A stretch of DNA of 64,000 bases, taken from a virus. The translations under genes and the position numbers were made by a program. Below are positions 7,947-64,000 of the stretch, in pieces; the first letter of the stretch is position 1, and the number at the start of each line of letters is the position of its first letter. The notes beneath the pieces were generated by a model. The model was not told the DNA's origin. It saw nothing but the letters and a program-made list of their open reading frames with translations, and ran no database searches. Location of the stretch: positions 1 to 64,000 of the IMG/VR virus record IMGVR_UViG_3300045988_119876; one strand, written 5' to 3'.

Positions 7947-7948
7947 TT

Positions 7949-8365: not shown

Positions 8366-8402
8366 GAAACATATATAGTTATCATTTTTAATAACATATC
8401 TT

Positions 8403-9025: not shown

Positions 9026-9036
9026 ATTGAAACAAT

Positions 9037-9933
9037 ATGGAAACTACAAACAAACTAACTTATTTAAGTACAAAATTCTTTACAGAAAACGAAGAAGAAT
9101 ACAGAATAACAGTCACGGTATCTTTAAATGATGATTGTCATAACAATATGTGTGACTGGAGCATAACAGCCGACGTTGACTGGAAAAACAAGCATGGAAA
9201 ATATGAGGATTACTTAGGAGGCTGCTGCCACGATGAAGTCGCAAAACATTTTCCGGAATTAGCGAAATTCATATCGTTGCATCTTTGTAACCATTATGGT
9301 GCTCCTATGCATCCGGTAGAAAATGGCATATATCACGTTAGAAGAAGCGGTATGTCTGTGGCAATGGAGTATTTGCGTATATCAGAGCAAGAATGCGCAG
9401 AATTATATAAAGCCTCTGAGGATGAGTTGTATTTCAAGTATATGCTTTTCAATCTGGGGATTGTGAATAGATGGAAACGTGAATCAGAAGAGCTTATTGC
9501 GGAACTTGAAAAAATGTGTGGAAAAAAGTGGGTTAATCCATATAAGCCGGAAGAAGAAAGATTTGTTTTAACACTAACAGACGAGGAACGATCTCTTATT
9601 GAAGAGCGTATTAAAGCCGGGTATTACTCCTCAGAAAATATCGAAAAGCATATGGAAGAGGCTCATAAAGCAAAGATGGCGGCAAAGCGTGCTGAAATTT
9701 GTGAGCGATACGATAAGAAAATCAGACGAGCAGAAGCAGAAAAGAAGATAATGCTCTGTGTGTTTGATTATGGGTTGTCTACCGATAACATCATATATTA
9801 TCCTCATACGAACACTTTATCTTTCAACTGGAACGATTATGGAAGAAAAATCACACAGGAAGAGTTTGTTGATTTTGTGAATAACGTAGATCGCTCTCAG
9901 TTGCCGGAAGGTATTAAGTTTGAACTTAAATAA
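9037..9933 (+). CDS. hypothetical protein (298 aa)
   Basis: ORF track. Confidence 0.55.
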   Translation: METTNKLTYLSTKFFTENEEEYRITVTVSLNDDCHNNMCDWSITADVDWKNKHGKYEDYLGGCCHDEVAKHFPELAKFISLHLCNHYGAPMHPVENGIYHVRRSGMSVAMEYLRISEQECAELYKASEDELYFKYMLFNLGIVNRWKRESEELIAELEKMCGKKWVNPYKPEEERFVLTLTDEERSLIEERIKAGYYSSENIEKHMEEAHKAKMAAKRAEICERYDKKIRRAEAEKKIMLCVFDYGLSTDNIIYYPHTNTLSFNWNDYGRKITQEEFVDFVNNVDRSQLPEGIKFELK

Positions 9934-10234
9934 AATACAGGATATGGAAAGATTGAATTTTGAAACATTGTTTCGTATCGTAAGATGGGATTACAACCGT
10001 TGTTTCAAGGATGAGTCGTTAGACAAGGATTTGTTTATGGGAAAATACGGGAAAGTTATGGGTGAACATTATTATAACAAGTTTATCCATGAATTTGACG
10101 GGAATATCCTGAAGATGGTTGGTTACTTCAGAGGTTCCGAAAAAGAGGGGCAAGTCTTCTGCGATATGATAACCGAACGTATTGAAAAATACGAAAAGAG
10201 AATGTCATATGATAAAGGTAAGTTAAACAATTAA
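9920..10234 (+). CDS. hypothetical protein (104 aa)
   Basis: ORF track. Confidence 0.5.
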   Translation: MNLNKIQDMERLNFETLFRIVRWDYNRCFKDESLDKDLFMGKYGKVMGEHYYNKFIHEFDGNILKMVGYFRGSEKEGQVFCDMITERIEKYEKRMSYDKGKLNN

Positions 10235-40534: not shown

Positions 40535-40984
40535 TTATAATTCCACATAGGTATCAATAGGGACAAAGCTGCCAATTGTACTTATCTTATATATTGAATG
40601 AATAAGGTGAGTACTTGGACTTAATTTCAGTTGAGGTACTTGATTGGATCCTTCTGTAATAAAGAAATAATAAAAAACGTCTCCAATCGTAAACTGTAAT
40701 ATAATATCACCTGTTACCTGTCCTTCATTAAAGTAAGCCTGGATATATTGTCCAGAATTTGATATCGTACAACTTATAGGATTACCGCCCATCGTACATA
40801 CCTTGCTATTATTAATTTCATCTAAAACATAGGAAGCCGCCATAGTTGCTCCATTAGATCGGTATCTACAACCAAGAATAGGTACAGGATTTCGCCATGT
40901 GGTTGTAGGGGCCGAAATCGAACAAGCAAAAACAGGGATCTTGACGCCGGCAACTGTCTTAATATTTTCAAATCTTCTTCTCAT
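40535..40984 (-). CDS. hypothetical protein starting MRRRF (149 aa)
   Basis: ORF track; ATG verified at 40984. Confidence 0.5.
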   Translation of the reverse strand: MRRRFENIKTVAGVKIPVFACSISAPTTTWRNPVPILGCRYRSNGATMAASYVLDEINNSKVCTMGGNPISCTISNSGQYIQAYFNEGQVTGDIILQFTIGDVFYYFFITEGSNQVPQLKLSPSTHLIHSIYKISTIGSFVPIDTYVEL

Positions 40985-41175
40985 AATTTCATAAAATTAA
41001 TTCAGTAAAAGGGCGGACATAATGTGAACTACCCCTTGAACCTGTATCCAAATGATCTCCTTGGATGTTTATATCATAATACCACGAATAGGTAAATTTT
41101 GTATTTCGAGTGGATGTCCACATTCTATTACTCATTATCGTACCTCCTACCATTAAAAGGCATTCGTTTATTTCA

Positions 41176-41607
41176 TTAGCATACAATGATATCAAAAAAA
41201 AACTCTCCGGCGCCACCTACATATCCATTTTGACCATTTTTAAATAAATAGCTATTAGCTTTATTAAAAGCGTAATCTGTATTACTGGTATCATATTCAA
41301 GATACGCATTCTGATTTTCACGCCCCCAATAATCCTTTTTAATAGTTCCAATATGAGAACTATCTTGTGCAAATATATTGTCTATTTCTCCATCCTTACC
41401 CCAACGAAATGTGCCAATATATTCGGTGGCTATAACAAAACACACTTTATCTACAAGAGCTATTCCATTGCATAGATCATTGGAATATCCTTTATTAGAC
41501 CAATTTTCTTTTGTATATAATCCTCCATCTACATGTTGGATGTATATGCCTTTATTGATTATAAGCGAGGGATTTACCCCCATCCCTATTTGAAATCTTC
41601 GTCTCAT
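41176..41607 (-). CDS. hypothetical protein starting MRRRF (144 aa from ATG 41607)
   Basis: ORF track ORF trimmed to internal ATG; an intrinsic terminator lies upstream of it. Confidence 0.5.
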   Translation of the reverse strand: MRRRFQIGMGVNPSLIINKGIYIQHVDGGLYTKENWSNKGYSNDLCNGIALVDKVCFVIATEYIGTFRWGKDGEIDNIFAQDSSHIGTIKKDYWGRENQNAYLEYDTSNTDYAFNKANSYLFKNGQNGYVGGAGEFFFDIIVC

Positions 41608-41822: not shown

Positions 41823-44800
41823 CTATTTGTAACTAACATCATCGTCTCCTTCCGAATCAGGAGTGGCGCCGATGAAGAACATCATTGACTTGTTGTTCGT
41901 CTGCTGCCACCAATTATAGGCGCGCGCTACGTCTTCCGGCGTCTTGATATTATACCATTGTTTGATAAACGTCTGTTTGGCGAGTTGCCTAAATAACTTA
42001 GACTCTCCTTTGTATGTACCGGACGTCACCTTATCAAGTGAATAATTCCTAAGATCGGTAAGATCCTTAAGTTTCCGTCCCATAACAAACGGGTCGTTAA
42101 TGATATCTACCACATTAAGCTCCATAATAAACGGCATCTGTGAAGCTATTTCATTTATGGTTCTGAATCCAACGTAAGATCCAAATTGAGTAAGCCAACT
42201 TTCTTCGTTTTCATCATCATCACGCCATCCGGCAAGAAGCATGGATACGGCTTGCATGATAAGGAACGTGCCTGCATAGACACTGAGGCGTTTGAGATTA
42301 GTTTTTTCTACCTCATTCATATTGTCTTTATTTTCGTTCCAGGCATCTATGATGTTTTTCATACCAGACTCGGAAGCCAGGCTAAATGTTTTGGCTATCA
42401 TATTCTTTAACGTAATTGACAACCCTTCCTCTTCTTGCATTGTTTGGAAATTGAAGCCACGTCTTTTCCACAGACGTTGAGCCGCCAGCACCAACCATCC
42501 TCGGTGGGCGGTCATGAACCTGGCTATCCAGTTGCGCGATGCGGCAGTTCGGTTTTCTTCATTCAAAGATCCGTTACATATCTGCGACAAGCTACGGACT
42601 TGATTCCTGGTTATAGCCATCTGGGTTTCAACTTCCTCAACAGTAACACCCGATCCTGGCTTTACAACCACCTTCCCATCCACGACGTCTACCATACTCC
42701 ATAAAGTACGATCTTTTAATGCATTCCATTCTCTTTTTATGGTACTCTGTTCTTTATTGCGTTCTTTTTCCATCTTGAAATCTTGGAACGTGTAGAACCG
42801 ACCTTTGTAATAACGAACATTGTCCATAGTAGCAATCATAACCTGCGGATCAAGAGGGTAGTTCAGGATTTCCATAAAAGCATACATAGGTGAACGCATT
42901 AAGGTCCTGGCCACTCTATTGTATCCGGCACCATACATACGATTTCGGATATTGAATATCCCCATTCTCTCACCTATGACATATAATTTGCTTTTCCTAT
43001 CTATGTCTCCGGTTTCTGCTATACAAGATGGAGCAAGGCGTGAAAATTCAGCCGATGCGTATTTAAGGGAATCTTTACTTATATACTGTCCTACGGCAGA
43101 TTCCATGATGAGGTTGATATGACCTGTTAAGGCGCCGGTAGCTGCCACAAACGGGGACAGTGCCAAGTTCATGACCGACATAAATCTTTCAACAGCCATC
43201 ATAATTCTTGTAAGGTCTACCGTATATCCTCCGATGTTCACCGTAAGTTTTTTGGTGTTCATCCTAATGCCATAATAATGATCGTTGAAGAAGTCCCTGA
43301 ACATCTGATATGCTTGGGTTGCTTCAGCCTTTTTACCACCTTCAAATTGTTTATTCAGTAACATCTGCTCCAGTCCTTGAGCGAGCTCTATAGACTTCTG
43401 CTTTTCGTTGTATAACGATGACTGCATCATAAGCATCGAATAAGAGTAGCCAAAATCGTGAGATACATCATCTTGGTTCTCCAATTCATATATGTAGTAT
43501 TTAGGTATAGACCTAAGTCTGTCTTCCGGATCATACACTTCTCCTTGCCTGGTTTTACCGTATAGAGAATCGTCTACTCTGTCCAGGCACAGATCTGATA
43601 CAAAATTACGAACCGTATTTTTGAAGTTAATACCCAATCCTTCCATACGTTCTATGTCTTGTTTTGATATCTGTGGAATAGCATACAGGTTCGGGCTCTG
43701 CTCTTTGTATAGATCAAGGGATTGTCTTTTTATTTCCTTGAGTTTTTGAATCATATTCCACTGCTCTACGTTTTTAGTAGCAACTTCATTACCGTCAGCA
43801 TCATACTTGATACCAAAGTCATTGAAATACGATTCATCACGATATAGGCTTTTCTTAGGCATTCGATGACCATACCCATGATCTTTTACATAATCAGGAT
43901 TACGGCCGCTATTTTCGGCTTCAGATTCAGCCACCCATGCCCTTGCAGGGTCGAAAGACAGGTACGATATGTCCATGCCATAATCTTGGGTGGATGTACC
44001 GTTTTGTACGTCCTTAACCATCTGCGCCACATCTATCTCACCTCGACCTATTTTGTCGATCATAGCCGCATATCCGGTAGGCGCCATGCGTTTATAGTAC
44101 GAAAAGACCTGGCTCCTGGCAAATTCATTAACAATAGCATTAGCTTCTTCTATGCCCTCTTCTCTTGTATTATTTAAAAACAAGCTGGCCATCTTAGCAT
44201 TAACAGCATTCCTAAAATCTCTACCGTCTAATTCTTTGCTTATACCAAGCTTTTCTGACAGGTAGTTGGTTTCAGATACGGTAAACAAATATCGGTTATC
44301 AGCAGCCTTAAACAGCTTATCCCTTAAAGCCTGAATCCTTTTTGCTTTCTTCGCCGTAGTATGACGTTGTACGAACTTCCATTCCACTTCCTTGGAGTCA
44401 GCAAGAGCATTTAAATAAGACTGATTTACTTCGTTTTCAGCCTTACTGCTTTTAGTAAGGTACTTATCAATATCTTCAAGACCCACCATCTTAGCATAAT
44501 CTATCAAAATAGCGTAATCGGCTTCAATAGCTTCAGATGCGGCCCTAAAAGCATCTCTTTCAGATGAGGTAAATGTCGCTTCGTTAATCTCTCCGATATC
44601 AGCCACATCGCGATTGTTTCCGATTATTTCCTTGATAATAGCCTTATTTTTTTCTATATCTTTCACAATAGAATCCACGTCAGTCGCATCTCTATCGCTT
44701 GTCGTAGAACTAATGATATCATGCGCCATTTTGAGATACGAAGCCTTGTTGTTTGATTCGGTGCGCGCTGACTGTTCCGATTCTATATCATTCCAAAACC

Positions 44801-47800
44801 GATCGTTGAATGACAGGTGACCTCCCAACATAAGTGTCTTCAGCGCAGCTTCTCCTCCTGACTCGTTCTGAATCGTTCTCAATTTTTGCAAAAACGATTC
44901 TGATACGACATTAGTGACATTATTTGATTCCTTTCTCCAAACTTCATTTATAGCTTGTATTTCTTTGGCCATCTTAAGTTGGTCGCCGGTTTTTTCCACT
45001 CTCCTGGTTCCTACATATATGTATTCTGAAGCTGCTTCTTTACGTTGTTTACGAAGCAGTCCTTCTTCTTCGTAATTGCTGCTTTTAAAATAGGCAACTT
45101 CATCAAAATTACCACCGCTATCAATAAAAGGCTGCCTCAATATCCGCTTCTGCCGAGAAAGAGCATTAAGGTATTCTTTGGTTGTTTGAGAAACCGGATG
45201 CCCTAATTCTTCTTCAGCCTTTTTGTATATGGATTCCATTCTTGTGGCATAACTTTCGCTAAATTCCAGTTCCGAATTTTCAGCATCCCACTTTTCCATC
45301 TGCTCTGTATAGATCTTTTCCTGCTCGATGGTAAAAATATCGGTATTAACTCTATCAGACGATGGTTTGAATTTAGCGTTTTCAGTAACCGTATTTCCAT
45401 CCTTGTCAACTACTTCTCTTTTAAATACGTAATTACGGTTATTGTCAACCACATCACCAATTTCTTCTTCTGATATCTCTATGTTCATGGCAGTCGCAAA
45501 CGCTCGCATCTGCGCCAGCTTCTTATTACGATCGTATTTAGCCATATCAAGGGCACTACGAAGGTAATTAGAAGTTTTGCCGTCTACTTTCTGAAGCAGT
45601 TTTTCAAATTCAGATTTGTTAAAACCATGCTTTTTCGCATATGCCAGGAAATCGGATATGGCGGGCTGGGCATTCACCATCGCATTGTAATTGTCTTTGG
45701 CAATCATAGCTCCAAGAGCGTTATTGAACGGGCTGGAAGAATGCTCTAATATACCGAACCACCTACTTATCCAAGAAACATCGTGTTGAACCTTATCAAA
45801 GAACTCTTTTACTCTCTTTACCTTATCTGCCGGCACATGAAGTTCGTTCATTAACTTGTCAAGCAACGTACTTTCATCAAGATCTTGTACTGATTTAATA
45901 TCAGACTGAATACCATTGATGTCGGCAATGACGGTATTGATCCTATTTGTATAATCCTGCTTTTCATGTTCATCAAATTCGGTACTTCTGTTACGGATAT
46001 ATCCTCGAAGATCGTTCATGATCGGAAGAACCTGATTGTTGATAATATCTACGTTCTTTCGATCATTGGTATTGAAGTGAAGCTTACCGTCTTTGGTATC
46101 ACCATGAAGGATGGTGTTTACCACATTACTTAAGTATCTGACCTGAGCTTCGGCTGTGGAGATCATGCTGTTCATGGCAGCCGCCATCTCATTCTTGTCT
46201 ATTTCGGTCTCTACCTTATTTATCTTATCTTCTATGGTCTTAAGCTGAGCAAGAGTCATAGACGTAGTTACAGCCCTATCAGAGCTTATCTGACGTAAGT
46301 CTCTTAAGGTTTTTCTTAGTGATCTGATCTTAGACTCAAGAAACTTGTTCTTGTTCATAGAAGAAAGAGAGTATAATGTAAAATCATTATCCTTTAACAG
46401 AGAGGTGTCAAATCCTTTATCTATGTCGGTAATAGCAAGATCGCGAATGTTTTTAATAACATTATTCAAATCTTGTCTTTGGGTAGATAAAGCTGATTTA
46501 AGCCAGCTTACTATTCCAGAGAGAAGCTGCCGGACGCGCCCCAGGAAGGAGGTGGGCTCTACCGGCGCCTGTGCTGTGCCGGTCTGCATCTCCCTGGCAA
46601 GGATCTTTCCAAGAATTTCTCTCCTAACAGCATTATCAAGCTCGGATCCTTCATATACCTTACCGTATGTATTATAATACTGACCTGCATACTGGTTCCA
46701 CTCTTCCGTACCTTCTACATCTTGCAGAACAGCCTCAACAGCATTCTGATCTCTGTATGCCTCTACAAGGAAGTGGGATGTTTCTTCTACTAAATCAGAT
46801 AAAGTAGCATCTTCACCAACTGCTATTACGTTATTGGCAATATCCGCCAATGCCTTAGCAGAAGGTTCATGCCCGTATTTGGTTTGGTACTTCTCTATAT
46901 AATCGGTCATACCTATGACACTAACGCCAAGAGTTTTCAGTATCTCGACAATAGAATTTCGTTGATCACGTTCCTCTTGGCTATAATCTGATACGATCTT
47001 AGCTTTAGTATCAGCGTAAAGATCGTTGTCTTCTAATATGAATGAAACTACAAGCGCATCAAAGTGATCGTATTTAGCATCCAATTCATTGTATCTTCCA
47101 GACTTAAGATCGCTCTTTATCTGCTCCTTGCTAACTCTTTCTGTTCCTCCGGTGGCGAGCCTCATAGTTACCTTACTATTATCCAACGAGCTTATGGTTA
47201 TCATACCTTGGTCGTTCATGGAAACATCTGAACCAAAATGATTACGGAGCTCGGTGTAGGATAAGGCTGAATTGAAAAGTCTAATTTGTCCTGTATGACC
47301 TTCTCCTGTAAGATAATAGCTTCTTGTTTCAGGATCGAATATCTTAGATCCGGACAAAAGACCTTTCTTTATAAGGTAGTTAATTATACCACCTTTTGTT
47401 GATAAAGAAGTAGAAGCAGAAGCGGTCATGACCGGTATAAAAGATTTGGGATTATTAAGAACATACTTTCCAGCCTTGTAAGTAATGTCTGCCACGCCAT
47501 CCACGGTAGATTCTTGAACGGTGCCTGATAAGAATCCTATTCTAATATCATTTCCGCCAGAGCGAAGAGCTTCTCCGTAATCTTCAAATAATTGACTACG
47601 ATCGTTCATGAAAAACAAACGAGGCTCTCCGGTCTGATACGTTACACCCACAGGATTAGAATCTGTCTGTGGTAGCTCTTCTGGGCTAAATATCTTAAGA
47701 CCGTCTTTTATAACCATATAATTAACACCCTTATCCTGTACCATAGATACGGGAGTGAAGTCCGAAGATATAGCATCTTGTAGATACTGCCCTGCGTCTA

Positions 47801-48245
47801 TTCCCGGTCCTTCCGGTACGGAAATACTTGACGGGACCATAGCATCTACCAACATAATATTATCACCCAGATCTTGGCTGTAAAATCCAAAGCCCGATTC
47901 TCGGATTTCATAAGGTGCATCTGATTTTGACACAAGAACAGGGTTACTCATCTTAGAAGCCTTATCCAGCACCCTTTCCCTGTAGGCTTCTGGGATAAGA
48001 TCGATGTTGGATTTTACCTTATTATAAGCCTGTTTGTTGATAGGCACTCTCTTTCTCCAGTCGCCAAAAGCCTTTAAGAACTTGTTGGAAAATACGGTTT
48101 TAAAAACAGTAGTAGCCCGTTCCCTGTTCTCCATAAGGGGAATAGATGCTATTTTATCAAACAACATAGACCTGTCCCCTGATCTGGTAGAGACAGAAAC
48201 AACTTTCTTTTTATTATCTCTTTTAATAATACACGTTGATGTCAT
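41823..48245 (-). CDS. giant hypothetical protein (2140 aa), probable virion or ejection protein
   Basis: uninterrupted 6.4 kb ORF; location in leftward structural block; no catalytic motif recognised. Confidence 0.7.
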   Translation of the reverse strand: MTSTCIIKRDNKKKVVSVSTRSGDRSMLFDKIASIPLMENRERATTVFKTVFSNKFLKAFGDWRKRVPINKQAYNKVKSNIDLIPEAYRERVLDKASKMSNPVLVSKSDAPYEIRESGFGFYSQDLGDNIMLVDAMVPSSISVPEGPGIDAGQYLQDAISSDFTPVSMVQDKGVNYMVIKDGLKIFSPEELPQTDSNPVGVTYQTGEPRLFFMNDRSQLFEDYGEALRSGGNDIRIGFLSGTVQESTVDGVADITYKAGKYVLNNPKSFIPVMTASASTSLSTKGGIINYLIKKGLLSGSKIFDPETRSYYLTGEGHTGQIRLFNSALSYTELRNHFGSDVSMNDQGMITISSLDNSKVTMRLATGGTERVSKEQIKSDLKSGRYNELDAKYDHFDALVVSFILEDNDLYADTKAKIVSDYSQEERDQRNSIVEILKTLGVSVIGMTDYIEKYQTKYGHEPSAKALADIANNVIAVGEDATLSDLVEETSHFLVEAYRDQNAVEAVLQDVEGTEEWNQYAGQYYNTYGKVYEGSELDNAVRREILGKILAREMQTGTAQAPVEPTSFLGRVRQLLSGIVSWLKSALSTQRQDLNNVIKNIRDLAITDIDKGFDTSLLKDNDFTLYSLSSMNKNKFLESKIRSLRKTLRDLRQISSDRAVTTSMTLAQLKTIEDKINKVETEIDKNEMAAAMNSMISTAEAQVRYLSNVVNTILHGDTKDGKLHFNTNDRKNVDIINNQVLPIMNDLRGYIRNRSTEFDEHEKQDYTNRINTVIADINGIQSDIKSVQDLDESTLLDKLMNELHVPADKVKRVKEFFDKVQHDVSWISRWFGILEHSSSPFNNALGAMIAKDNYNAMVNAQPAISDFLAYAKKHGFNKSEFEKLLQKVDGKTSNYLRSALDMAKYDRNKKLAQMRAFATAMNIEISEEEIGDVVDNNRNYVFKREVVDKDGNTVTENAKFKPSSDRVNTDIFTIEQEKIYTEQMEKWDAENSELEFSESYATRMESIYKKAEEELGHPVSQTTKEYLNALSRQKRILRQPFIDSGGNFDEVAYFKSSNYEEEGLLRKQRKEAASEYIYVGTRRVEKTGDQLKMAKEIQAINEVWRKESNNVTNVVSESFLQKLRTIQNESGGEAALKTLMLGGHLSFNDRFWNDIESEQSARTESNNKASYLKMAHDIISSTTSDRDATDVDSIVKDIEKNKAIIKEIIGNNRDVADIGEINEATFTSSERDAFRAASEAIEADYAILIDYAKMVGLEDIDKYLTKSSKAENEVNQSYLNALADSKEVEWKFVQRHTTAKKAKRIQALRDKLFKAADNRYLFTVSETNYLSEKLGISKELDGRDFRNAVNAKMASLFLNNTREEGIEEANAIVNEFARSQVFSYYKRMAPTGYAAMIDKIGRGEIDVAQMVKDVQNGTSTQDYGMDISYLSFDPARAWVAESEAENSGRNPDYVKDHGYGHRMPKKSLYRDESYFNDFGIKYDADGNEVATKNVEQWNMIQKLKEIKRQSLDLYKEQSPNLYAIPQISKQDIERMEGLGINFKNTVRNFVSDLCLDRVDDSLYGKTRQGEVYDPEDRLRSIPKYYIYELENQDDVSHDFGYSYSMLMMQSSLYNEKQKSIELAQGLEQMLLNKQFEGGKKAEATQAYQMFRDFFNDHYYGIRMNTKKLTVNIGGYTVDLTRIMMAVERFMSVMNLALSPFVAATGALTGHINLIMESAVGQYISKDSLKYASAEFSRLAPSCIAETGDIDRKSKLYVIGERMGIFNIRNRMYGAGYNRVARTLMRSPMYAFMEILNYPLDPQVMIATMDNVRYYKGRFYTFQDFKMEKERNKEQSTIKREWNALKDRTLWSMVDVVDGKVVVKPGSGVTVEEVETQMAITRNQVRSLSQICNGSLNEENRTAASRNWIARFMTAHRGWLVLAAQRLWKRRGFNFQTMQEEEGLSITLKNMIAKTFSLASESGMKNIIDAWNENKDNMNEVEKTNLKRLSVYAGTFLIMQAVSMLLAGWRDDDENEESWLTQFGSYVGFRTINEIASQMPFIMELNVVDIINDPFVMGRKLKDLTDLRNYSLDKVTSGTYKGESKLFRQLAKQTFIKQWYNIKTPEDVARAYNWWQQTNNKSMMFFIGATPDSEGDDDVSYK

Positions 48246-49911: not shown

Positions 49912-50187
49912 TTACATATTTAAAATACCGTTTTTACCAATATGCTTCTTCTCTTCTTCAGTAGGCCATTCTTTCTTGAACTTACCATGCCACGTTCCAG
50001 GAACTACCACCACTTCGTTTCCCTTACTATATTCAATAGCGGCACATTCAGAACAAAGAGGCTTGCCTTCATATCCCTTTAGCGACTTATCGTAAATACG
50101 ATTCTTACAAGGTCTTATAAGAGCCCAATAACAGGATGTGGCTGTATTATCTATACAGCCACATTTTGAACAAACAAACAAACTCAT
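49912..50187 (-). CDS. zinc-ribbon protein (CSKCGC...CSEC; 91 aa)
   Basis: ORF track. Confidence 0.5.
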   Translation of the reverse strand: MSLFVCSKCGCIDNTATSCYWALIRPCKNRIYDKSLKGYEGKPLCSECAAIEYSKGNEVVVVPGTWHGKFKKEWPTEEEKKHIGKNGILNM

Positions 50188-51047
50188 CCCGCAATCTCCC
50201 AGTCATTAGACATAATATCATGTTCGGTTGGATTCCAATTTGATGCTACTTTTTGACCTGTATCTATCATCAATATATTTACGTCAAACATACAGATATA
50301 CTTTTTACCCCAATCGATTCTTTTTATCTTACGACCTAATTTAAGCCGTTCTAAAGCCTGTTCGAATGTCATGCCATGACGAGGCAGTTTGAGATACTTT
50401 TCAAGTCTGTCGGAGGCTTCATTTGGTGTATGGCCATCGTATTCGAAAGCGGTTTCTCTTTCAGGAACATCAAACAAATCCCAGTATTTGCTTTCATAGT
50501 GATTAGATACCTGACCGGTAGGTAGGATCGCCATCACAATAAACCAATCATCAGAACCGAAGCATTTTTCTCCGTCGCTGTGTCTCCTTGATTTGCAAAC
50601 TTCAACCTGTCCGCTTCTGGCTAATAGATTAAAGAAGGCAGCGTTATACAACATGCGATACCGATACAATTCATTGAAAGTGTGGTATCCGTCAGAGACT
50701 TCTCCCACGTCTACAGGCTTCTTGTTTTGAATACTACCCAAAATATTCTCTATATAGAGCTGTATTTTATACATACCCATTTCGGTGTGGCCGTATTTGT
50801 TCAAGATATTATTGACATCGTATTGTATATTAAAATCTTTTTCAAATTCTACTTCAGGATGATTAGGATAGTAGTAATCTACTGATGCTTCTAACACAGA
50901 CTTGATATGCTCTACTATCCTCGTGGCATCATCATGTTTTAAGAAATTCTTGAATCCCTCAACGAATTTAATATCTTCTTCGATTGTTGATTCGAACTCT
51001 TCTTTTGTCATTACTCTAACCACATCTTTAAAATCTTTTAATTCCAT
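50184..51047 (-). CDS. hypothetical protein with C-terminal DUF2829 (Tad2-like) domain
   Basis: last ~62 aa MTFEQALERLKLGRKIKRIDWGKKYI...SNDWEI fits the remembered DUF2829 consensus (F.eAl.alk.Gkkv.R..W ... DWei). Confidence 0.5.
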   Translation of the reverse strand: MELKDFKDVVRVMTKEEFESTIEEDIKFVEGFKNFLKHDDATRIVEHIKSVLEASVDYYYPNHPEVEFEKDFNIQYDVNNILNKYGHTEMGMYKIQLYIENILGSIQNKKPVDVGEVSDGYHTFNELYRYRMLYNAAFFNLLARSGQVEVCKSRRHSDGEKCFGSDDWFIVMAILPTGQVSNHYESKYWDLFDVPERETAFEYDGHTPNEASDRLEKYLKLPRHGMTFEQALERLKLGRKIKRIDWGKKYICMFDVNILMIDTGQKVASNWNPTEHDIMSNDWEIAG

Positions 51048-56150: not shown

Positions 56151-58409
56151 TTACCTACATTCCAATTTATTAAGATCATCCAATTCAGGCTTGCTTACGG
56201 TCATGTCTTGCGTCAAGCCAGATCTGTTTTGGTATGGAGCGTAATCGGTTTCTACCGTCTTAGCCTTCTGAGTAGAATCGTATTTCACCTCTGATTCGGT
56301 TCCTGTCAGATTTTGGTAGATAGAGCCGGAACTACTCTCGCTTACTTTAGACCATATCTTATTACCTACTCTTATAAAATTATCATAAATACCTTCGGCT
56401 GTTATAACACCATCTTGCTCTACGATATTAGGGCCCGATTTTTCTTTTAACAGATACGGGTGCCTGGTGTAAAAATAGTGTTCAAAATCATTCTCGGCAT
56501 ACGAAGGGTCATACCTATCCAAATAAAACAATTTTGATAAAAAAGGGTCGGTGCTGGTCATGCTATAATCAAACAACATCAACCTGTCTTTTCCAGATAA
56601 AGATAATTCTATTGATTTCAAAATATCAGGATCATCAGAAATAAGACCCAAAGATGGACCAGATTTGAAGTCAAGATACTTATAGGCATTATCATATAAT
56701 TTTGTTTTATGGAGTTTGTTGTCAAGGTAATATTGGTATAAATCGAATAAGGATAATGGGTTTTCGCTATCTTGTTTTTTGTTCATGTACCGACTAAATT
56801 CCCGATCCACATCCGCGTAAGAAACATCAAGTACCGCCGGGTGCCCAAACGCCATCCTGGTCATTATCATGTCCTCCGTGTTCTGAGAATCCATGAACGA
56901 TCTGACGTATTTTTTAATGGAATCCATGAGCGTATTATTATCTACGTTCCGTACTTTCTCTTTATCCAAAACGCCGTTCTTAAAACAAGATTCAGGATAT
57001 ATTTTAGCAGGAAAGTGAGTTAGGTTGTGCTTGGCTAACACTGTTGATATTTGATACATCTCGTTAAGATCATCTTTGCTGATCCTTTGATATAGATTAT
57101 CTCCTACCTTAAGCAATGAATGTTTCTCAAATGCTTCTACTGGGTCTATATTTGATTCAGAATAAACGATATTCAAATTATCCATATATTCCGGCAATAA
57201 TCCAAAATAATAGTCTGTACTATCACCAAGAACATCATCTATAGAAGATGCCAGCGTTGGAGCATAATTTGCATCATTATGCCTGGCCACATAAATATCA
57301 AGATCCAGCATCAAATTATCTATCTTATTCAAAGATTCTTCTGTGCCATCATAAGTTTCTGACGCCCCTATTATATCTATGCCAAACCACGTACAAGCCT
57401 CTTCTATATCCCATATCATGCTTCTTAAATCAGATTCGGTGTCGGCATTAGCCCTATTTAAATAAGCTGATATACGAGCTCTTAGGAACTCTATTTTGCC
57501 AGGATTGTAATAAGACAGATCTTGTAGCTTAGACAAGGATCTTCTCTTGCCTTCTACCACATCATCCCCTTCTATGTTTATTACCGGAATCTTATTCGTA
57601 GATAAAAACTCATCAAACATAGATTCGGCAAATTCTTTATCAGAAACAAATTTCTCAACCAGTTCAGGATATGAGTTTCTCAACGATTCAAAAGCAGATG
57701 AAAATTCAGAAAATTTTTTTATGCCGGCTACTGTTTTACGCATAGCATAATAAAGCTCAGAAGGATTATATGGTACTTTTTTACCAAATTGGTTAAACAC
57801 TCCCTCCTTGTAAACAATAGGACCATACTGATAGTCAACAGACATAAAATAATTATCTTTTTCCCTATCATGTTCGTTATTGGAATAATCCAATAACTTC
57901 CTCATGGATGTCGAAACTTCATTAAGAACAGAAGGATCAGATAAGATTCTACTTATCTCTGTTTCATTATACAAGCCTGATCTTCTTAAATTCTGCTCAT
58001 TCAGTATCAAACTACCATCTACATAAAAATAATGAAGAATGATGTTGGATAATGATGGTGCCGTATAAACACCATAGGTAGATAAAAGAAAATCTCTTAC
58101 ATCCTTAACATCCTGATCCGTTAGAGGATCGGCAAAATAAGTTTGACGCTTCATATACGACAGCACGTCTTCTAAAAGAGGTTCACCATTGGAATCGGTA
58201 TTAAACATCTCCCCTGGAGCCGGGTTATTCCAATGACCGTAATACGACAAAAAACCAAGAGTGTAAGCCTTAGCCCATACCTGAAGAGCCCGCTCGCTGT
58301 TTCCTAATACTTTTAAAGCACTTTCGTAAAGAACGGAAGGCTCCCCGTTAGGAGCCTTAACCCGTTTTATTTCATTTTCCTTTTTTTCTATCTGACATTT
58401 GACACCCAT
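56151..58409 (-). CDS. large hypothetical protein (752 aa), probable structural protein
   Basis: ORF track; ATG verified at 58409. Confidence 0.7.
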   Translation of the reverse strand: MGVKCQIEKKENEIKRVKAPNGEPSVLYESALKVLGNSERALQVWAKAYTLGFLSYYGHWNNPAPGEMFNTDSNGEPLLEDVLSYMKRQTYFADPLTDQDVKDVRDFLLSTYGVYTAPSLSNIILHYFYVDGSLILNEQNLRRSGLYNETEISRILSDPSVLNEVSTSMRKLLDYSNNEHDREKDNYFMSVDYQYGPIVYKEGVFNQFGKKVPYNPSELYYAMRKTVAGIKKFSEFSSAFESLRNSYPELVEKFVSDKEFAESMFDEFLSTNKIPVINIEGDDVVEGKRRSLSKLQDLSYYNPGKIEFLRARISAYLNRANADTESDLRSMIWDIEEACTWFGIDIIGASETYDGTEESLNKIDNLMLDLDIYVARHNDANYAPTLASSIDDVLGDSTDYYFGLLPEYMDNLNIVYSESNIDPVEAFEKHSLLKVGDNLYQRISKDDLNEMYQISTVLAKHNLTHFPAKIYPESCFKNGVLDKEKVRNVDNNTLMDSIKKYVRSFMDSQNTEDMIMTRMAFGHPAVLDVSYADVDREFSRYMNKKQDSENPLSLFDLYQYYLDNKLHKTKLYDNAYKYLDFKSGPSLGLISDDPDILKSIELSLSGKDRLMLFDYSMTSTDPFLSKLFYLDRYDPSYAENDFEHYFYTRHPYLLKEKSGPNIVEQDGVITAEGIYDNFIRVGNKIWSKVSESSSGSIYQNLTGTESEVKYDSTQKAKTVETDYAPYQNRSGLTQDMTVSKPELDDLNKLECR

Positions 58410-58410
58410 A
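58383..58410. repeat. 28-nt exact repeat copy 1 (tttttctatctgacatttgacacccata), covers the start of the 752-aa gene
   Basis: identical to 59033..59060. Confidence 0.8.
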
Positions 58411-58435
58411 ATGATTAACTTTTTTGCAAAGTTAA

Positions 58436-58966
58436 TTATAAAACCGACTTATACAATAACGGATCCCAAACTCCTTCTATATAAATCTCTGGAAAACTTA
58501 AACCGCCATCACGAAGAGTAGTAACTTTCAAACTGGGAATATTAAAAACAGTGCAAACATCACCAAACTCACGGCTCAACTTAATAGCATTTCCGCTGTT
58601 ATCAGCTTCATAATAACAATAACAATAATTTTCATTAATGTTTGGATCATATTCGTACCAATATGTTAGATCCTGTATATGATCTTCTATATTACCAATT
58701 TTATTTTCACCTAATATAAAAATACCATTATTACTATGGTGATAAACTATAGATTCATAACCACCATGATTCCAATCACTATTAAACATTATATAACTTT
58801 CTTCGGAATCATTATCTTTTAATACAGGTCCTATATGTATATGAATTTTATTAAACTGACATACATAAGATCTTTTTCCTCCAAGCCTTTTTATATCCTC
58901 ATTAGATAACTTATTATAACATCCTCCCACGAAATTATCCGCAGCATTAAAAAATCTCCTTCTCAT
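58436..58966 (-). CDS. cassette gene B, hypothetical protein starting MRRRF (177 aa from ATG 58966)
   Basis: ORF track; preceded by an ~80-nt copy of the 3' end of the giant gene. Confidence 0.55.
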   Translation of the reverse strand: MRRRFFNAADNFVGGCYNKLSNEDIKRLGGKRSYVCQFNKIHIHIGPVLKDNDSEESYIMFNSDWNHGGYESIVYHHSNNGIFILGENKIGNIEDHIQDLTYWYEYDPNINENYCYCYYEADNSGNAIKLSREFGDVCTVFNIPSLKVTTLRDGGLSFPEIYIEGVWDPLLYKSVL

Positions 58967-59035
58967 ACTCAACACTCCTTGTTTAACTTATTTATCGAAT
59001 CCGAATTATCAGAACCTTCTACGAGATTCTTATTT
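58954..59035. repeat. ~82-nt repeat copy 2 (about 95% identical to 59666..59747), including a pseudo C-terminus ...NLVEGSDNSDSINKLNKEC* and the ATGAGAAGGAGA start
   Basis: direct alignment of the two stretches shows 4 mismatches. Confidence 0.8.
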
Positions 59036-59060
59036 TTCTATCTGACATTTGACACCCATA
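59033..59060. repeat. 28-nt exact repeat copy 2, encodes a 9-codon remnant MGVKCQIEK* of the 752-aa gene start
   Basis: identical to 58383..58410; similarity continues weakly for ~15 nt more. Confidence 0.8.
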
Positions 59061-59099
59061 GTGATAAATATTTTAGACAAAATACTATAAAAATAGAAA

Positions 59100-59678
59100 T
59101 TATGAAACTTCTATTTCATAATGCGAAGCCTTTGTTTCAACTATTAATCTTCCCTCTCCTTCAAACTCAACGCTATTATCTCCTGGACCAGTAACAAAAG
59201 GGAAATCAGATACGGATGTTACATAATCTTTATCACCACCAGAAAAAGACTGACTTTTACTTTGTTTGTAATTGATAGTCAATTGTGTTTTACCTATCTG
59301 AAGAGTTCCAGATAAATTTTTAGTATAAGTGGTGGTAGTTGTAATATCCCCATTTTTATAACAATACATTATAAAGGTGGTAACCGGACTCTTTTTTATA
59401 TTACTATCCGGACCTTCATGATAAGATTCATTTCCTCCAAATATGCTATAAATGTGACAATAGGGACCGACTCTTTTACTTGAAGTTTTAGCCTTATTCT
59501 CGACTCCTTTCAAAGATATAGTAACCTTACTCTTGTATTCAACATCCTTCCAATTACAGACTCCTTCACTTACGTTTCCAACAAACCCGTCATCAACATA
59601 AACCTCTATATTCCCCTGCTGATTGGTCTTCAACTGATACTGAACAAGACCTGAAACATCTTCATATCTCCTTCTCAT
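59100..59678 (-). CDS. cassette gene A, hypothetical protein starting MRRRY (193 aa from ATG 59678)
   Basis: ORF track; ATG overlaps the giant-gene stop (TGAGTATG). Confidence 0.55.
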   Translation of the reverse strand: MRRRYEDVSGLVQYQLKTNQQGNIEVYVDDGFVGNVSEGVCNWKDVEYKSKVTISLKGVENKAKTSSKRVGPYCHIYSIFGGNESYHEGPDSNIKKSPVTTFIMYCYKNGDITTTTTYTKNLSGTLQIGKTQLTINYKQSKSQSFSGGDKDYVTSVSDFPFVTGPGDNSVEFEGEGRLIVETKASHYEIEVS

Positions 59679-59747
59679 ACTCAACACTCTTTATTTAACT
59701 CATTTATCGAATCCGAATTATCAGAACCTTCTACAAGATTCTTATTC
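59666..59747. repeat. ~82-nt repeat copy 1 = authentic 3' end of the giant gene plus start of gene A
   Basis: see 58954..59035. Confidence 0.8.
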
Positions 59748-62700
59748 CTATCTATCTCTTCCTGGCTCATGTTGCTCATCATATTTTGTATTTTTCTACC
59801 AGATTGAGATAAAGAGCGGATGAATGCGCTGGAGCTTATCTTAACTCCAAGATCCGGTTTCGCCCTAAACGCTTCACCGGTACTGATATTATACAAATCA
59901 TACACACCTGAGTTCATATAGAATTTATATATCCAGTTTCCACCAGCTTTTTTGTACCCTAATTTGGTTAGCTCAGTTACACTCATACCAAATTTAATAC
60001 CATTACGACCCATTATCTTCTCCGGTATAGGCTCTACCTTAGCCGGAACAGATGTATATGCTTCATCACCGCCGTACAGGAAATAAGGGGTTGTTACCCT
60101 TGATATGTGAGTAAGCGGCTCTTCGGATATACGAGGTTCGTCTTTCGCAGCCTTAGATCCTTTCCTTAGATTGGATATTCTAATAAAAGGATCGTATGTC
60201 AAAAAGGTTAAGCCGTATTCTACTTTATAACCTGATACGCCGTTAAGGTCCCTTATAGCCTTAGTCGTATGCGAGTGATTGATGGTGTCTATACCATACC
60301 TTGATTCCATATCGGTCATAATGCTATTAACCTCATCTCCCTCTACATAAACCTCTTCTCCTTCCGGAATAGAGGTTATGCCGGAAGCCCTTCTAAGTAG
60401 CCATAAAGTAACTTCAGCAATGTCAGAGAACTTATCTCCGTTCTTTCTATAGTTATCTACTCTTCCTTCTTGAGATCCAGGTAATTCGACATTTCTTTCA
60501 ACTTCGACATTTGTTCTGGATTGTCCTTTGCCTTCTCCATCTCCCTTTTTATCGCCATCTTCCTCAGTGCGTACTGCACCGCCTTCTGCACTTCCTTCTT
60601 TTCCATTATTTAAAATATTATCTGATTCTGACTCTATAGACTCCACAACAGCATCATACTCTGGAATGCCACTAAGGAAATCTGCTACGTTATTCAAAAA
60701 CTCTATTTTTTCCTCGTTTGTCATATCAAGGCTTTCCATAGGCTCCCATATGGCAGGCAAGTTATTTGATTCTATTGCAGTAGAAACATCTTCTACAGTT
60801 TGATTATCTACCGTAGGCAAAACTTCAGAAACCAAACTATTGATGTCAGATTCCATTTTTTCTACTTCCTCTTTTGTGCCATATTCTTTTAGGGTATCCA
60901 TACCATTGACTCTAAGAGAATAATTCAAAGCCTTGCTTGGAACAAAATTAATATATTTCAAAAAGTTTTTCAACTCTGATATAATTTGTTCGTCAGATCT
61001 TGGCCCAACATAATCCGCTACTACCTGATCCGTTTGAGAACGAAGCCAAGAAACGTATTCATCTAAGGTCTTACCTCCCTTTTTAGAAGGAGTGGATATT
61101 TTATCACCTACTGTTCCTTTAGGTTCTAATCCCATTTCCTCCTTAAGACTTTTTGGATTACCTCTATCACGAAGAAACCTCAAATCGCCTCCTACAATCT
61201 TCCTTGCTATAAAATCAAAAATATTAGCATAAGGCGGCAATCCTTCTTTTTCTATATGAGATTCTATTTCGTTTAACATAAGAGAGAAGTTTTTCCTGGA
61301 GGTACGCTTCTTGCCAGGTAAAGACTGCGCAGCTTGTGCCGCAGGAGCCGGCTGAGTTGATGGCGTCGGCTGAGTCGCCTGGACAGGCTCTTCCTCTGGC
61401 ATTTCCTCTTCGTAAATATCCACATCTTCCTTGGAAGTAACGGTCTTACCCTCATCAGAGAAAGGAAGATCATCCTCTATAAGCGACTTAGGGCTGGAAG
61501 ATGATTTACCAAACTGAATCCTGATCTTAGGAGCGACAAACATCTCACCTTCGAAATCTATTCCAGATTCTACTTCAGACGTCACAATGTCTTTCACGCT
61601 CCTACTTCCATCTTCTACCCACTTAACAACATCAGGAACTGTAGATAATTTTTCTATAGCCTCACGAGCTTTTCTAAGCCCTGAAATAGGATTCAAATAC
61701 GATACTTGATACGAAGCCGGATCAAGACCTAACTTGGTTAGATACGCATTAAGATCTTGTATATCATCTTGACCCATCTGTAGCAATTCAGAATCACCGG
61801 ATTCAAGCAGCATATCTATAAAAGACATCCATTTCTGCCCTTCCTCTGATTCCACAGAACGTAGGCTAACTGGGAAAAGATAATTAAGACCGTTTTTACC
61901 TTTGATGACAACTACCGGAACTCTTACATTTTTGTAATTATTCCCCTTGTCATTTAATATAGAATAAGCAAATGGGAAGCCTGTGTATTTAGATCCGTTC
62001 TTAAGCACGACTTTACCATTTAATACATATCCGACATCAGATACTTTTTCAGCACCTTTTTCGGTAATAGGGAGATTTTCTACCTGGCCATATCCTTGAC
62101 CGTTCACCTTCATGTTAAACACCGGTCTTCCGGGAAGGGTCTGGGCAACAACATGCGTGCCGACGCCGATGGTAGCCGACCGGCCGGCGTCCTTCTTCCA
62201 CTTGTTAAAAGCCGTTCTTCTTATTTTACTTATACCATCTATGCCTCCTGTATCAGCTTTTACAACAGAAACGAATCTGTTCCCACTCATGACCTTGATA
62301 ACCATATTGGATACCAGTTTATTCTCAGCAGATTCTATTCTTTTTTTATCGCCGGACTGAACAGCGTCATTGTATTCGGCAAAAAGAGACTGATTATAGG
62401 TATCATTTACATCTATTTCGAGATTAACCTTATCTCCTTTTTTCAAAGAAGATAATGCTTCCTGATCTATTTTATCTACCTCATTCTCTCCGAATCCGAC
62501 ACCTGTTCTGTACGGAACCAATTCATCTGAATCAAGACGCTTATAAACCAAAGAATAGGAATTACCCACGTCCTGAATAGACACGTCTGTGTAACGGTTA
62601 AGAACACGAGCCGATTCTTTGTCTATAGACCATCTCGCATGATAAGGCAATTCAATTATAGTAGCCGTTTCTCCACCTATATTAAGAGAATACCTTTTAG

Positions 62701-64000
62701 TGCCATTAGCGTTCGTTTCAGAGCTTATTTGAATAGGAACCAATGATTTTATAGAAGATATAAATTTATCGGCTCTAAGACCTGCAATTTCATACCTTTC
62801 GTTGCCATCGTTGGATATTCTTCTAACCATCAACGTCTCTGGATTCTGGGCGCTATCTATGTTAGCTCCAGGCGTATTATCGGATTCATCTAACTCATTT
62901 ACAAGAGAATCTATATTGGTATCATCCTCCCCAAAATTACTTAACGTAGATTCGGAAATACGACCTTTATCAATAATCCTGTTTTGTTCGATATAAGGAA
63001 GGAGATCTGTGATGTTTCCAACCTGGCCAAGATCTTCTATGGTAAATACCGAATCGGCAAGCTTATCTTCGTCAACCTTCTCCCCTTTATCCCGTCTGTT
63101 CATTATATCAACATACGAAGAAATAGCATCATCAAGTTCCTTCCTTTGATCTGGTTCTAAATTGGATTTAGCCATATCAATAATAGCTTTATTATCCTCA
63201 TACACAGATCTCGGACTTGTAAGCCTATCAGCCTTCTCAGATAATGATTTTATGAGATTAACAGGACTGTCACCCAAAGATGATACATAATCATCAAAAT
63301 CTTGTTTGTATTTATCATACACATCTTTTTCTCTCGCAGTAAGAAGATCGGCATTGCCTGTATATAGTTTATCAATTATAGACTGCCTTACGGCCGGAAC
63401 CATAATAGGATTATCCATAGCAGCCTCATAATCTTCATCCGATACAGACTCCGTAAGCGGTGACTCTTTTATATCATCTTCTGCTTCCCTCATCCTATCT
63501 TCCCTTACTTTATCAAGAGCATGCATAAAAGCCTTGATAGTCCAAGCTTCGTCTTCCGAAATCTTACCTTCTGACACAGCTTGATCTACTACCTCATCAG
63601 TATCATATTCACCAACTTTATTAGGCTCTGCAAAATCAGGAACCTTATCATCCCCCTTATAAGGAGTAGACCATAGAGAAGACAGCGCTTTTGAAAATCC
63701 CCTGTTTTCCTCAGCTAAGAATCTTTTATCAAGCATCTTGGACAAGAAGTTATTCATATTCCTATAGCCCATCAAACTCCTTCGGTATTCATTTACCAAG
63801 GATCTCATGGCTTTGTCTTTGGCTGTAAACTTCTTTTCCTGTCTTGATTTTACATTAAAATAATCATCAAAAGCCACAAGCGTATCATAGGCTTCTATTA
63901 CATCTTGTGAACTTATGGGAGAAAGAGGAGATGATAAAACAGATTCGGTTTTACTTACCAACTCTTCTATCGAAAACTCTTTTCCTATTAACGTTGATAA
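59681..64000 (-). CDS. giant hypothetical protein, at least 1439 aa, 5' end beyond the window
   Basis: track start 63961 is a TTG; the 13 codons upstream to the window edge are open and read LSTLIGKEFSIEE, so the gene probably continues. Confidence 0.7.
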   Translation of the reverse strand, partial: LSTLIGKEFSIEELVSKTESVLSSPLSPISSQDVIEAYDTLVAFDDYFNVKSRQEKKFTAKDKAMRSLVNEYRRSLMGYRNMNNFLSKMLDKRFLAEENRGFSKALSSLWSTPYKGDDKVPDFAEPNKVGEYDTDEVVDQAVSEGKISEDEAWTIKAFMHALDKVREDRMREAEDDIKESPLTESVSDEDYEAAMDNPIMVPAVRQSIIDKLYTGNADLLTAREKDVYDKYKQDFDDYVSSLGDSPVNLIKSLSEKADRLTSPRSVYEDNKAIIDMAKSNLEPDQRKELDDAISSYVDIMNRRDKGEKVDEDKLADSVFTIEDLGQVGNITDLLPYIEQNRIIDKGRISESTLSNFGEDDTNIDSLVNELDESDNTPGANIDSAQNPETLMVRRISNDGNERYEIAGLRADKFISSIKSLVPIQISSETNANGTKRYSLNIGGETATIIELPYHARWSIDKESARVLNRYTDVSIQDVGNSYSLVYKRLDSDELVPYRTGVGFGENEVDKIDQEALSSLKKGDKVNLEIDVNDTYNQSLFAEYNDAVQSGDKKRIESAENKLVSNMVIKVMSGNRFVSVVKADTGGIDGISKIRRTAFNKWKKDAGRSATIGVGTHVVAQTLPGRPVFNMKVNGQGYGQVENLPITEKGAEKVSDVGYVLNGKVVLKNGSKYTGFPFAYSILNDKGNNYKNVRVPVVVIKGKNGLNYLFPVSLRSVESEEGQKWMSFIDMLLESGDSELLQMGQDDIQDLNAYLTKLGLDPASYQVSYLNPISGLRKAREAIEKLSTVPDVVKWVEDGSRSVKDIVTSEVESGIDFEGEMFVAPKIRIQFGKSSSSPKSLIEDDLPFSDEGKTVTSKEDVDIYEEEMPEEEPVQATQPTPSTQPAPAAQAAQSLPGKKRTSRKNFSLMLNEIESHIEKEGLPPYANIFDFIARKIVGGDLRFLRDRGNPKSLKEEMGLEPKGTVGDKISTPSKKGGKTLDEYVSWLRSQTDQVVADYVGPRSDEQIISELKNFLKYINFVPSKALNYSLRVNGMDTLKEYGTKEEVEKMESDINSLVSEVLPTVDNQTVEDVSTAIESNNLPAIWEPMESLDMTNEEKIEFLNNVADFLSGIPEYDAVVESIESESDNILNNGKEGSAEGGAVRTEEDGDKKGDGEGKGQSRTNVEVERNVELPGSQEGRVDNYRKNGDKFSDIAEVTLWLLRRASGITSIPEGEEVYVEGDEVNSIMTDMESRYGIDTINHSHTTKAIRDLNGVSGYKVEYGLTFLTYDPFIRISNLRKGSKAAKDEPRISEEPLTHISRVTTPYFLYGGDEAYTSVPAKVEPIPEKIMGRNGIKFGMSVTELTKLGYKKAGGNWIYKFYMNSGVYDLYNISTGEAFRAKPDLGVKISSSAFIRSLSQSGRKIQNMMSNMSQEEIDRNKNLVEGSDNSDSINELNKEC

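Follow-up and report, generated by a model that had tools for sequence, protein, structure and literature searches.

The stretch of DNA analysed here (the window, 64,000 nucleotides in length) corresponds to positions 1 to 64,000 of the IMG/VR virus record IMGVR_UViG_3300045988_119876, and our subject is a short N-terminal motif, MRRRF or MRRRY, with which four otherwise dissimilar proteins of the window begin (referred to below as the tag). In the region around these genes, the window is 99.6% identical to csAssE-Sib (OR575929.1), a 151-kb crAss-like genome from the human gut with annotated portal, ring, and muzzle proteins. Early and replication genes are located on the plus strand of the window, whereas the late block occupies the minus strand, with its end at about 40,500. 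The four tagged genes, designated A to D, and their tag codons are as follows:

40535..40984, minus strand: gene A, 149 residues, MRRRFENIKTV..., last gene of the late block
40970..40984, minus strand: tag codons of A, ATG AGA AGA AGA TTT
40989..41607, minus strand: gene B, MRRRFQIGMG..., 205 residues when intact, split in the window into 41176..41607 (143 residues) and 40989..41216
41593..41607, minus strand: tag codons of B, ATG AGA CGA AGA TTT
58436..58966, minus strand: gene C, 176 residues, MRRRFFNAADN..., on a cassette that is not in csAssE-Sib
58952..58966, minus strand: tag codons of C, ATG AGA AGG AGA TTT, with a T6 run (58949..58954) after them
59100..59678, minus strand: gene D, 192 residues, MRRRYEDVSG...
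59664..59678, minus strand: tag codons of D, ATG AGA AGG AGA TAT

A sequence-only reading of this DNA had reported the four shared starts, and they were confirmed: all of them lie on the minus strand and read ATG AGA (AGA/CGA/AGG) AGA TTT/TAT. When the six frames of the 64 kb were scanned, ATG followed by three arginine codons was found at exactly four sites, with Phe or Tyr as the next residue in 4/4, and each site opens an open reading frame (ORF) of at least 143 residues. The same reading had itself raised the possibility that the motif is common by chance. This is not so, as a looser pattern in IUPAC code, ATGMGNMGNMGNTWY, gave four matches against 0.21 expected, and four or more were seen in 0/100 shuffles. 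Relaxing the protein pattern (M, up to three residues, [RK]RR) added only one ORF in the window, which is early and unrelated. The GTG or ATG extensions 5' of the MRRR starts that appear in the ORF-finder list are not conserved, and an A-run indel in relatives shifts the upstream frame and leaves the MRRRF frame unaffected; therefore, the ATG of MRRR is taken to be the true start.

The number of four, which had been given for the tagged proteins, holds for the window, but the set is larger. Three more tagged genes are present in csAssE-Sib, beyond the window and just upstream of the muzzle-protein gene:

csAssE-Sib: extra tagged gene, MSRRRYFEEQ, 153 residues
csAssE-Sib, record 63285..64007: family F, MRRRFLIKNRE, 240 residues, codons AGG CGT CGT TTC
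csAssE-Sib: family G, MRRRFENVNMV, stopping at 32 residues, just upstream of a TnpB gene

A relative with a 57%-identical F possesses four tagged genes in a row; one is a G that is intact at 169 residues, the length of G in locus L086, and another belongs to an additional family and is encoded on the other strand. IMG/VR was scanned for the MRRRFEN coding pattern, which led to the identification of at least 117 loci containing at least 212 tagged ORFs of seven families. With C and D included, the tagged families (lettered A to I here) number at least nine, and they have no relationship to each other. The earlier statement that A to D share nothing else was likewise borne out, since pairwise BLASTP similarity is confined to the first 6-13 residues. 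When family alignments were compared by hhalign with the first eight residues trimmed, the best probabilities were 28% for C-H and 16% for A-I, and the rest were below 2%; Pfam and PHROG scans of A to D returned nothing significant. In 596 gigabases of genomes from bacteria and archaea, the MRRRFEN coding pattern was matched four times, as often as expected by chance, and no match was related. No description of the M-RRR-F/Y motif was found in the literature searched.

The arginine codons of the tag differ within as well as between families (AGA AGA AGA, AGA CGA AGA, AGG CGA AGA, AGG AGG AGA, AGG CGT CGT), and the 45 nucleotides 5' of each tagged gene are unrelated, the C/D pair excepted; therefore, selection acts on the peptide. 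Insertions between Met and RRR are tolerated (MS-, ML-, MG-, and MNE-RRR). Among 82 family-F homologs with 45-65% identity, the two central arginines are kept in 76/82 and 72/82, RRR is present in 60/82, and 81/82 have at least two R/K within the first 7-8 residues, while residues 5-15 are variable. The position of F/Y after RRR is often occupied by L, V, or T in these homologs. In the A family, MRRRF is kept at 40-44% identity, with residues 6-13 changed. The tag is M-(0-2 residues)-R-R-R-(F/Y, sometimes another hydrophobic residue), kept by selection on the protein. With its varying codons, its tolerance of insertions, and central arginines retained next to variable residues, the short functional tag proposed by the earlier reading is upheld at the protein level, and we consider it very probable that a functional peptide tag exists. 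A tRNA-dependent rare-codon ramp was also considered and rejected, because the tag codons come from different arginine codon boxes.

Another explanation would place the shared feature in the nucleotides, either as a start context (AGGAGA resembling a Shine-Dalgarno sequence, or purine-rich early codons) or as a recombination junction or microhomology travelling with cassettes. The evidence for it comes from the C/D slot, located between a giant gene and a gene of 752 residues:

59681..64000, minus strand: 3' part of a giant late gene, frame open to the window edge, 2208 residues in csAssE-Sib; upstream border of the C/D slot
59666..59746, minus strand: upstream flank, original, 81 nucleotides, true 3' end of the giant gene and first 13 nucleotides of D
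59027..59093, minus strand: downstream flank, pseudo-copy, 67 nucleotides, intergenic DNA and first ~27 nucleotides of the 752-residue gene (ATGGGTGTCAAATGTCAGATAGAAAAA); repeat D2, 78% identical to 58377..58443
58954..59034, minus strand: upstream flank, pseudo-copy, 81 nucleotides, pseudo 3' end of the giant gene and ATGAGAAGGAGAT; repeat D1, 95% identical to 59666..59746
56151..58409, minus strand: late gene, 752 residues, no Pfam match; downstream border of the C/D slot

An 81-nucleotide flank, extending through ATGAGAAGGAGAT, is common to C and D, and the two sequences part immediately past it. In 80 relatives the two genes replace each other in this slot, which contains C alone (the commonest case), D alone, C+D, D+C, C with a TnpB gene, or frameshifted copies, and the tandem carries pseudo-copies of both flanks. 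The two pseudo-flanks abut; therefore, the tandem looks like the product of an unequal crossover between two genomes with alternative cassettes. TnpB (IS605 OrfB/Cas12f-like) is located between C and the 752-residue gene in several relatives and directly 3' of the 32-residue G remnant in csAssE-Sib; it adjoins tagged genes in csAssE-Sib (L004 14017..15413), at L009 4702..5934, and in about ten other relatives.

Thus, shared flank DNA partly accounts for the tag that C and D have in common, and the recombination junction suggested by the earlier reading applies to this pair, which occupies one slot, but not to A, B, E, F, G, H, and I. A, B, E, F, G, and I have unrelated flanks, the codons differ (AGG CGT CGT TTC; AGA CGA AGA), and extra codons are allowed between ATG and RRR. 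In addition, the chimeras seen are deletions between neighbouring genes and not tag-mediated swaps. The Shine-Dalgarno-like context that had been offered as an alternative fails because AGG CGT CGT TTC has no AGGAGA and the upstream DNA is unrelated. As a general account, a nucleotide-level feature is contradicted and is real for C and D only; we regard it as very improbable as the explanation of the tag.

The tag had also been compared to a Tat-like (twin-arginine translocation) signal, and it might be presumed to be an export signal, whether a Tat RRxF motif or the n-region of a Sec or lipoprotein signal. RR-R-F/Y resembles the RR-x-F of the Tat core, and MRRRFLIK is close to RRxFLK, yet the motif begins at residue 2, with no n-region before it. 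None of the families has a hydrophobic h-region: the highest Kyte-Doolittle means of 12 residues within the first 45 residues span 0.37-1.63, the maximum of 1.63 being that of A and the other families reaching at most 1.1. The weak segment of A is interrupted by Lys and followed by Cys21 (VFAC), which is Val (VFAV) in 44%-identical relatives. A bacterial lipoprotein signal was therefore rejected, as there is no conserved lipobox Cys and no h-region. According to the AlphaFold models of F and A, the first beta-strand of the folded body starts already at residue 12-16. The tag is similar to Tat signal peptides in that RR precedes an aromatic or hydrophobic residue close to the N-terminus, but it differs in having no h-region or c-region and a folded domain within about 12 residues. 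An unrelated bacterial lipoprotein on a contig of a Bacteroidaceae metagenome-assembled genome (L208 4589..) starts with MRRRFENI, followed by a classic hydrophobic core and Cys, and the same five residues can therefore act as a signal-peptide n-region in the likely host family. For the tagged phage proteins, the chance that the motif serves export is practically negligible.

Family F is the member whose body could be assigned. It matches the Pfam family PF21722 (Gly_rich_2) with an E value of 3.6e-16 and 60.3 bits (gathering cutoff 24.3), its homologs carry precomputed PF21722 annotation, and it also matches PHROG families of 'minor tail protein'. The AlphaFold model, which was based on an alignment of 82 sequences, has a predicted local distance difference test score (pLDDT) of 89.9 and a predicted template modelling score of 0.89, with low confidence at residues 1-10 only, and the predicted fold is a beta-sandwich with stacked glycine-rich loops, similar to the tumour necrosis factor (TNF)-like/polyglycine type. 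Foldseek matched this model to the fibre of cyanophage Pam3 (7ypx_A, E 2e-5), the tail tip of Bxb1 (9d93_Qb, E 1.4e-4), and the TNF-like/Gly-rich domain of ALK/LTK. Against viral proteins, the model gave 219 matches at E <=0.001; of the 50 that were listed, the majority exceed F in length, and several have been given the name of minor tail, tail fibre, or collagen-like proteins. Judging from the model, F is predicted to be a fibre-tip domain that stands alone and is preceded by no more than about 17 residues. A to D could not be placed in PF21722, as hhalign against F gave probabilities of at most 1.1%.

Homologs of D, B, and A were found in the same phage lineage only; for A, there were 23 relatives among 1.84 billion representatives, all from the same phage group. 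The model of A is weak (pLDDT 64) because no deep alignment could be made from homologs confined to this lineage; it suggests a beta-sandwich with residues 1-12 disordered. Its matches in the PDB are weak and Ig-like only (E ~1e-2), and the sequence gave a single weak match to a Big_2-repeat protein. The C-terminus of B has a faint DUF1566/Lcl_C-like match (E 0.81). When the tag is left out, the isoelectric points of the proteins are in the acidic to neutral range (4.8-6.9), and that of F is 8.8.

In unrelated Bacteroidales phages of different types, the RRR-tagged Gly-rich protein occurs in a recurrent gene order, in which the gene before it encodes a fibre protein whose C-terminal domain is homologous and the gene after it a protein of the 342/370/223-residue family. 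In L222, a phage contig of about 48 kb, this order (tag MLRRRT, candidate fibre gene at 7873..9999) is located between a 1533-residue ORF and putative lysis-cassette genes; in the Suoliviridae phage cr1_1, the fibre, tagged, and 342-residue-family genes are gp057 to gp059. The Mu-like phage locus L087 carries two tagged Gly-rich genes (MGRRRF and MSRRRF) in the same fibre module as a distant homolog of D, which starts with MNIRRFM and has 49-54% identity over residues 3-61. In the cultured Parabacteroides phage PF672P1, the 897-residue protein WAX17108.1 is followed by the tagged MSRRRF protein WAX17107.1 (241 residues) and then by a 223-residue protein, a match by gene order alone. The fibre-like 349-residue gene of csAssE-Sib adjoins a 370-residue gene, and the tagged genes of this phage are found at other places of the late region. 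No assignment was obtained from Pfam for the fibre proteins or for those of the 342/370-residue family.

Comparison of F from csAssE-Sib (L004 13285..14007) and L222 (10001..10723) revealed a mosaic with sharp breakpoints at residues 17/18 and 233/234. Between them, residues 18-233 are 95% identical (96% at the DNA level); outside them, 6/17 residues of the leader are identical, the last seven residues differ, and RRR is present in both leaders. The sequences indicate that the F body was probably transferred recently between phage types, namely the 150-kb crassvirus and contigs of about 30-60 kb. The leaders differ but keep RRR, so the virion-proximal ends appear to be context-dependent and RRR constant.

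These data bear on the idea that the cationic-aromatic arm itself binds anionic capsule, lipopolysaccharide, or mucin glycans and not the virion. RRR with an aromatic residue would make a plausible polyanion-binding patch on acidic proteins, and the bodies are adhesin-like. However, both termini of F co-vary with the genome context while the body transfers, and the N-terminus of the Pam3 fibre is virion-proximal, opposite its receptor-binding Gly-rich tip. In Pam3 gp24, helices at the N-terminus attach to the baseplate and receptor binding is by the Gly-rich end, and gp38 of phage S16 is the separately encoded analogue (PMC9608196). We thus find direct glycan binding by the arm quite unlikely.

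The tagged genes are unusually unstable, and the break in B of the window is caused by a homopolymer run:

41194..41202, minus strand: T9 run (A9 on the plus strand) frameshifting B; T8 in csAssE-Sib, giving the 205-residue protein ending at window 40989

Locus L142 has the same T9. Among 22 tagged B copies sampled, 15 are intact (14 of 205 residues and one of 206) and seven are frameshifted, either at the T run or at about codons 10-19; T9 is found in two of the sampled copies, T7 in one, and the early frameshift in five. In the database, B clusters of intact length have 3360 members and truncated ones 1878. The run-length changes of B could be due to contingency-type switching, transcriptional slippage, or simple decay. 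In five relatives (L007, L054, L057, L068, and L073), C reads MRRRFF*, a reading that would fit one extra T in the T6 run at 58949..58954, by which C would be switched off right after the tag. D homologs, which come from close relatives only apart from the L087 protein, have many internal deletions and chimeras, and chimeras among D/B homologs join a C N-terminus to a D C-terminus, a B N-terminus to an A C-terminus, or an A-like N-terminus to a B-like C-terminus. Such frequent deletions and frameshifts fit dispensable accessory genes of the host-interaction type, and the variants suggest that the adhesin repertoire varies at the population level. A G11 homopolymer was also observed about 19 nucleotides 5' of the F start codon (L004 13256..13266; csAssE-Sib record 63256..63266), and this tract is a candidate length-variable element of the F promoter or leader.

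The position of the four window genes had been described as directly downstream of giant structural genes. This is correct for D, which begins 2 nucleotides past the stop of its giant neighbour, and loosely for B (215 nucleotides), but not for the other two, as A follows B and C follows D. The giant gene next to B is the following:

41823..48245, minus strand: giant late gene, 2140 residues, 5' of gene B; homolog of crAss001 gp49 (phmmer E 3.6e-15)

In crAss001, gp49 is an RNA-polymerase-associated virion cargo protein (PMC10172136). With A to D in a block of cargo-type giant genes that includes this 2140-residue homolog, the tag might be proposed to function in internal packaging or ejection, the basic arm targeting the capsid, the tail cargo zone, or packaged DNA for delivery to the host, in the manner of the T4 capsid targeting sequence or of crassvirus cargo proteins. 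A cationic arm could bind DNA, and crAss001 stores several cargo proteins, while the epsilon group is without gp45, so that other cargo is conceivable (PMC10172136). However, F, which is the tagged family characterised best, has the fold of an external fibre tip and is found in tail-fibre modules. The acidic to neutral character of the bodies speaks against proteins that bind DNA in bulk; there is no common cleavage motif after the tag, and inactivation is very frequent, unlike that of essential ejection proteins. A role in packaging or ejection is unlikely in our view.

Searches of Pfam and of PDB sequences with the giant genes that flank the tagged ORFs gave no match, and a phmmer comparison of the crAss001 virion proteins with all ORFs of csAssE-Sib and the window found homologs for gp20 and gp49 only. 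The gp49-like giant gene has 2140 residues in the window versus 1885 annotated in csAssE-Sib (record 103830..109487); despite the 99.6%-identical neighbouring DNA, its size does not match, owing either to a length polymorphism or to the start having been annotated differently. Between the two groups of tagged genes, a protein of 287 residues (window 50184..51047, minus strand) was found to be a fusion of a WDGH domain (E 5.8e-36) with a Tad2-like domain of the Thoeris anti-defence type (E 7.1e-11), and it is a candidate anti-Thoeris gene of the crassvirus late region.

Among the roles that the sequence-only reading had offered for the tag, virion incorporation fits best, in the form of an external docking arm for fibres or adhesins. 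M-RRR-F/Y is proposed to serve as a minimal arm by which accessory binding modules, encoded separately, dock or are assembled; it would lie on a flexible N-terminal arm of about ten residues, carried by small, modular, fast-evolving late proteins of csAssE-type crAss-like phages and by stand-alone Gly-rich tips of other Bacteroidales phages. The modules, which may be of TNF-like/polyglycine, beta-sandwich, or perhaps lectin-like type, would attach non-covalently to one virion site, and A to D would accordingly be virion proteins. The best candidate for the socket is the conserved C-terminal domain of the fibre protein, with possible help from the 342/370-residue family protein. The accessory modules are exchanged as cassettes, fused, or deleted, and they are frequently inactivated by homopolymer frameshifts. 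We estimate the probability that the tag is a docking or assembly arm of such exchangeable, often frameshift-inactivated accessory adhesins at roughly 40%.

Several observations weigh against this proposal. A to D, whose virion membership is inferred, match no known family, and the model of A is weak. The tagged genes of the window are located in the RNA-polymerase/cargo block, away from the fibre genes. Five shared residues are far below any known fibre anchor, and no MRRR start was found among the virion proteins of crAss001. Some Gly_rich_2 homologs are without RRR (MQNKKK, MGKKNL). PF672P1 has one tagged protein only, and therefore the use of the tag by multiple families would be specific to one lineage.

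A further-reaching form of the docking proposal, in which a 'plug' of 4-5 residues would be a universal adaptor mounting at least nine unrelated, separately encoded binding domains on a common socket, possibly phase-variable and reshuffled as cassettes, is doubtful. In this form, homopolymer frameshifts would turn single modules on or off, and the anchor would be much smaller than those described for phage fibres. Gut crassviruses are very abundant, and their host recognition and persistence are largely unexplained. If the tag is a docking arm, it would provide a simple sequence rule for candidate adhesins in metagenomes, and it would indicate a socket protein and a means by which phages of Bacteroidales could be fitted with foreign binding domains. 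We know of no cultured member of the epsilon-type crassviruses; the cultured phage PF672P1, which carries a tagged Gly-rich protein, would offer a testable system.

F is similar to gp38 of Salmonella phage S16 and T2-type phages and to gp24 of Pam3 in its TNF-like/polyglycine architecture; gp38 and gp24 require an N-terminal attachment element for their function (PMC9608196). It also resembles them in being encoded right after a fibre gene and before another small gene. However, gp38 attaches by an N-terminal domain in which three short helices are folded together, and the attachment of Pam3 gp24 is by a long helical bundle, whereas F has about 17 residues before the domain, only M-RRR-F/Y is conserved among them, and the same start is found on at least eight unrelated bodies. 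In crAss001, residues 1-26 of gp22 are anchored in the THA/THB tail hub, and the head fibres gp21 and gp29 are held in hexon pockets; epsilon-group phages are without homologs of these head fibres, and such groups may use uncharacterised analogues (PMC10172136). The crAss001 fibres belong to the same virus order, and short N-terminal segments hold proteins with distal Ig-like or beta-sandwich domains, as presumed for the tagged proteins; they differ in showing no sequence homology (gp21/gp29), in having anchors of 26-58 residues, and in the absence of an MRRR start.

Phages with multiple receptor-binding proteins (RBPs), for example CBA120, G7C, and K1-5, have exchangeable tailspikes or RBPs with conserved N-terminal anchor domains. 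A constant mounting N-terminus joined to a horizontally exchanged, variable binding body is common to these phages and the present proteins, in which one tag is combined with at least nine bodies. Unlike the tag, the anchors of multi-RBP phages are folded, homologous, and tens to hundreds of residues long; here, 4-5 residues on a disordered arm are shared, and only 5-13 residues align. The capsid targeting sequence of T4 is about ten residues long; it directs proteins to the capsid interior, and the prohead protease removes it by cleavage at a defined motif. It is comparable in being a short N-terminal peptide common to unrelated proteins with one destination in the particle; it differs in that the tag is followed by no shared cleavage motif (FEN, FQI, FFN, YED, YFE, FLI) and that one tagged family has a predicted external fibre-tip fold. 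A constant N-terminus with exchangeable RBP bodies and separately encoded Gly-rich adhesins were thus already known. What is new is how short the shared element is, that a single crassvirus lineage carries it on nine or more bodies without relationship to each other, and that it is conserved on stand-alone Gly-rich tips of Bacteroidales phages that are themselves unrelated.

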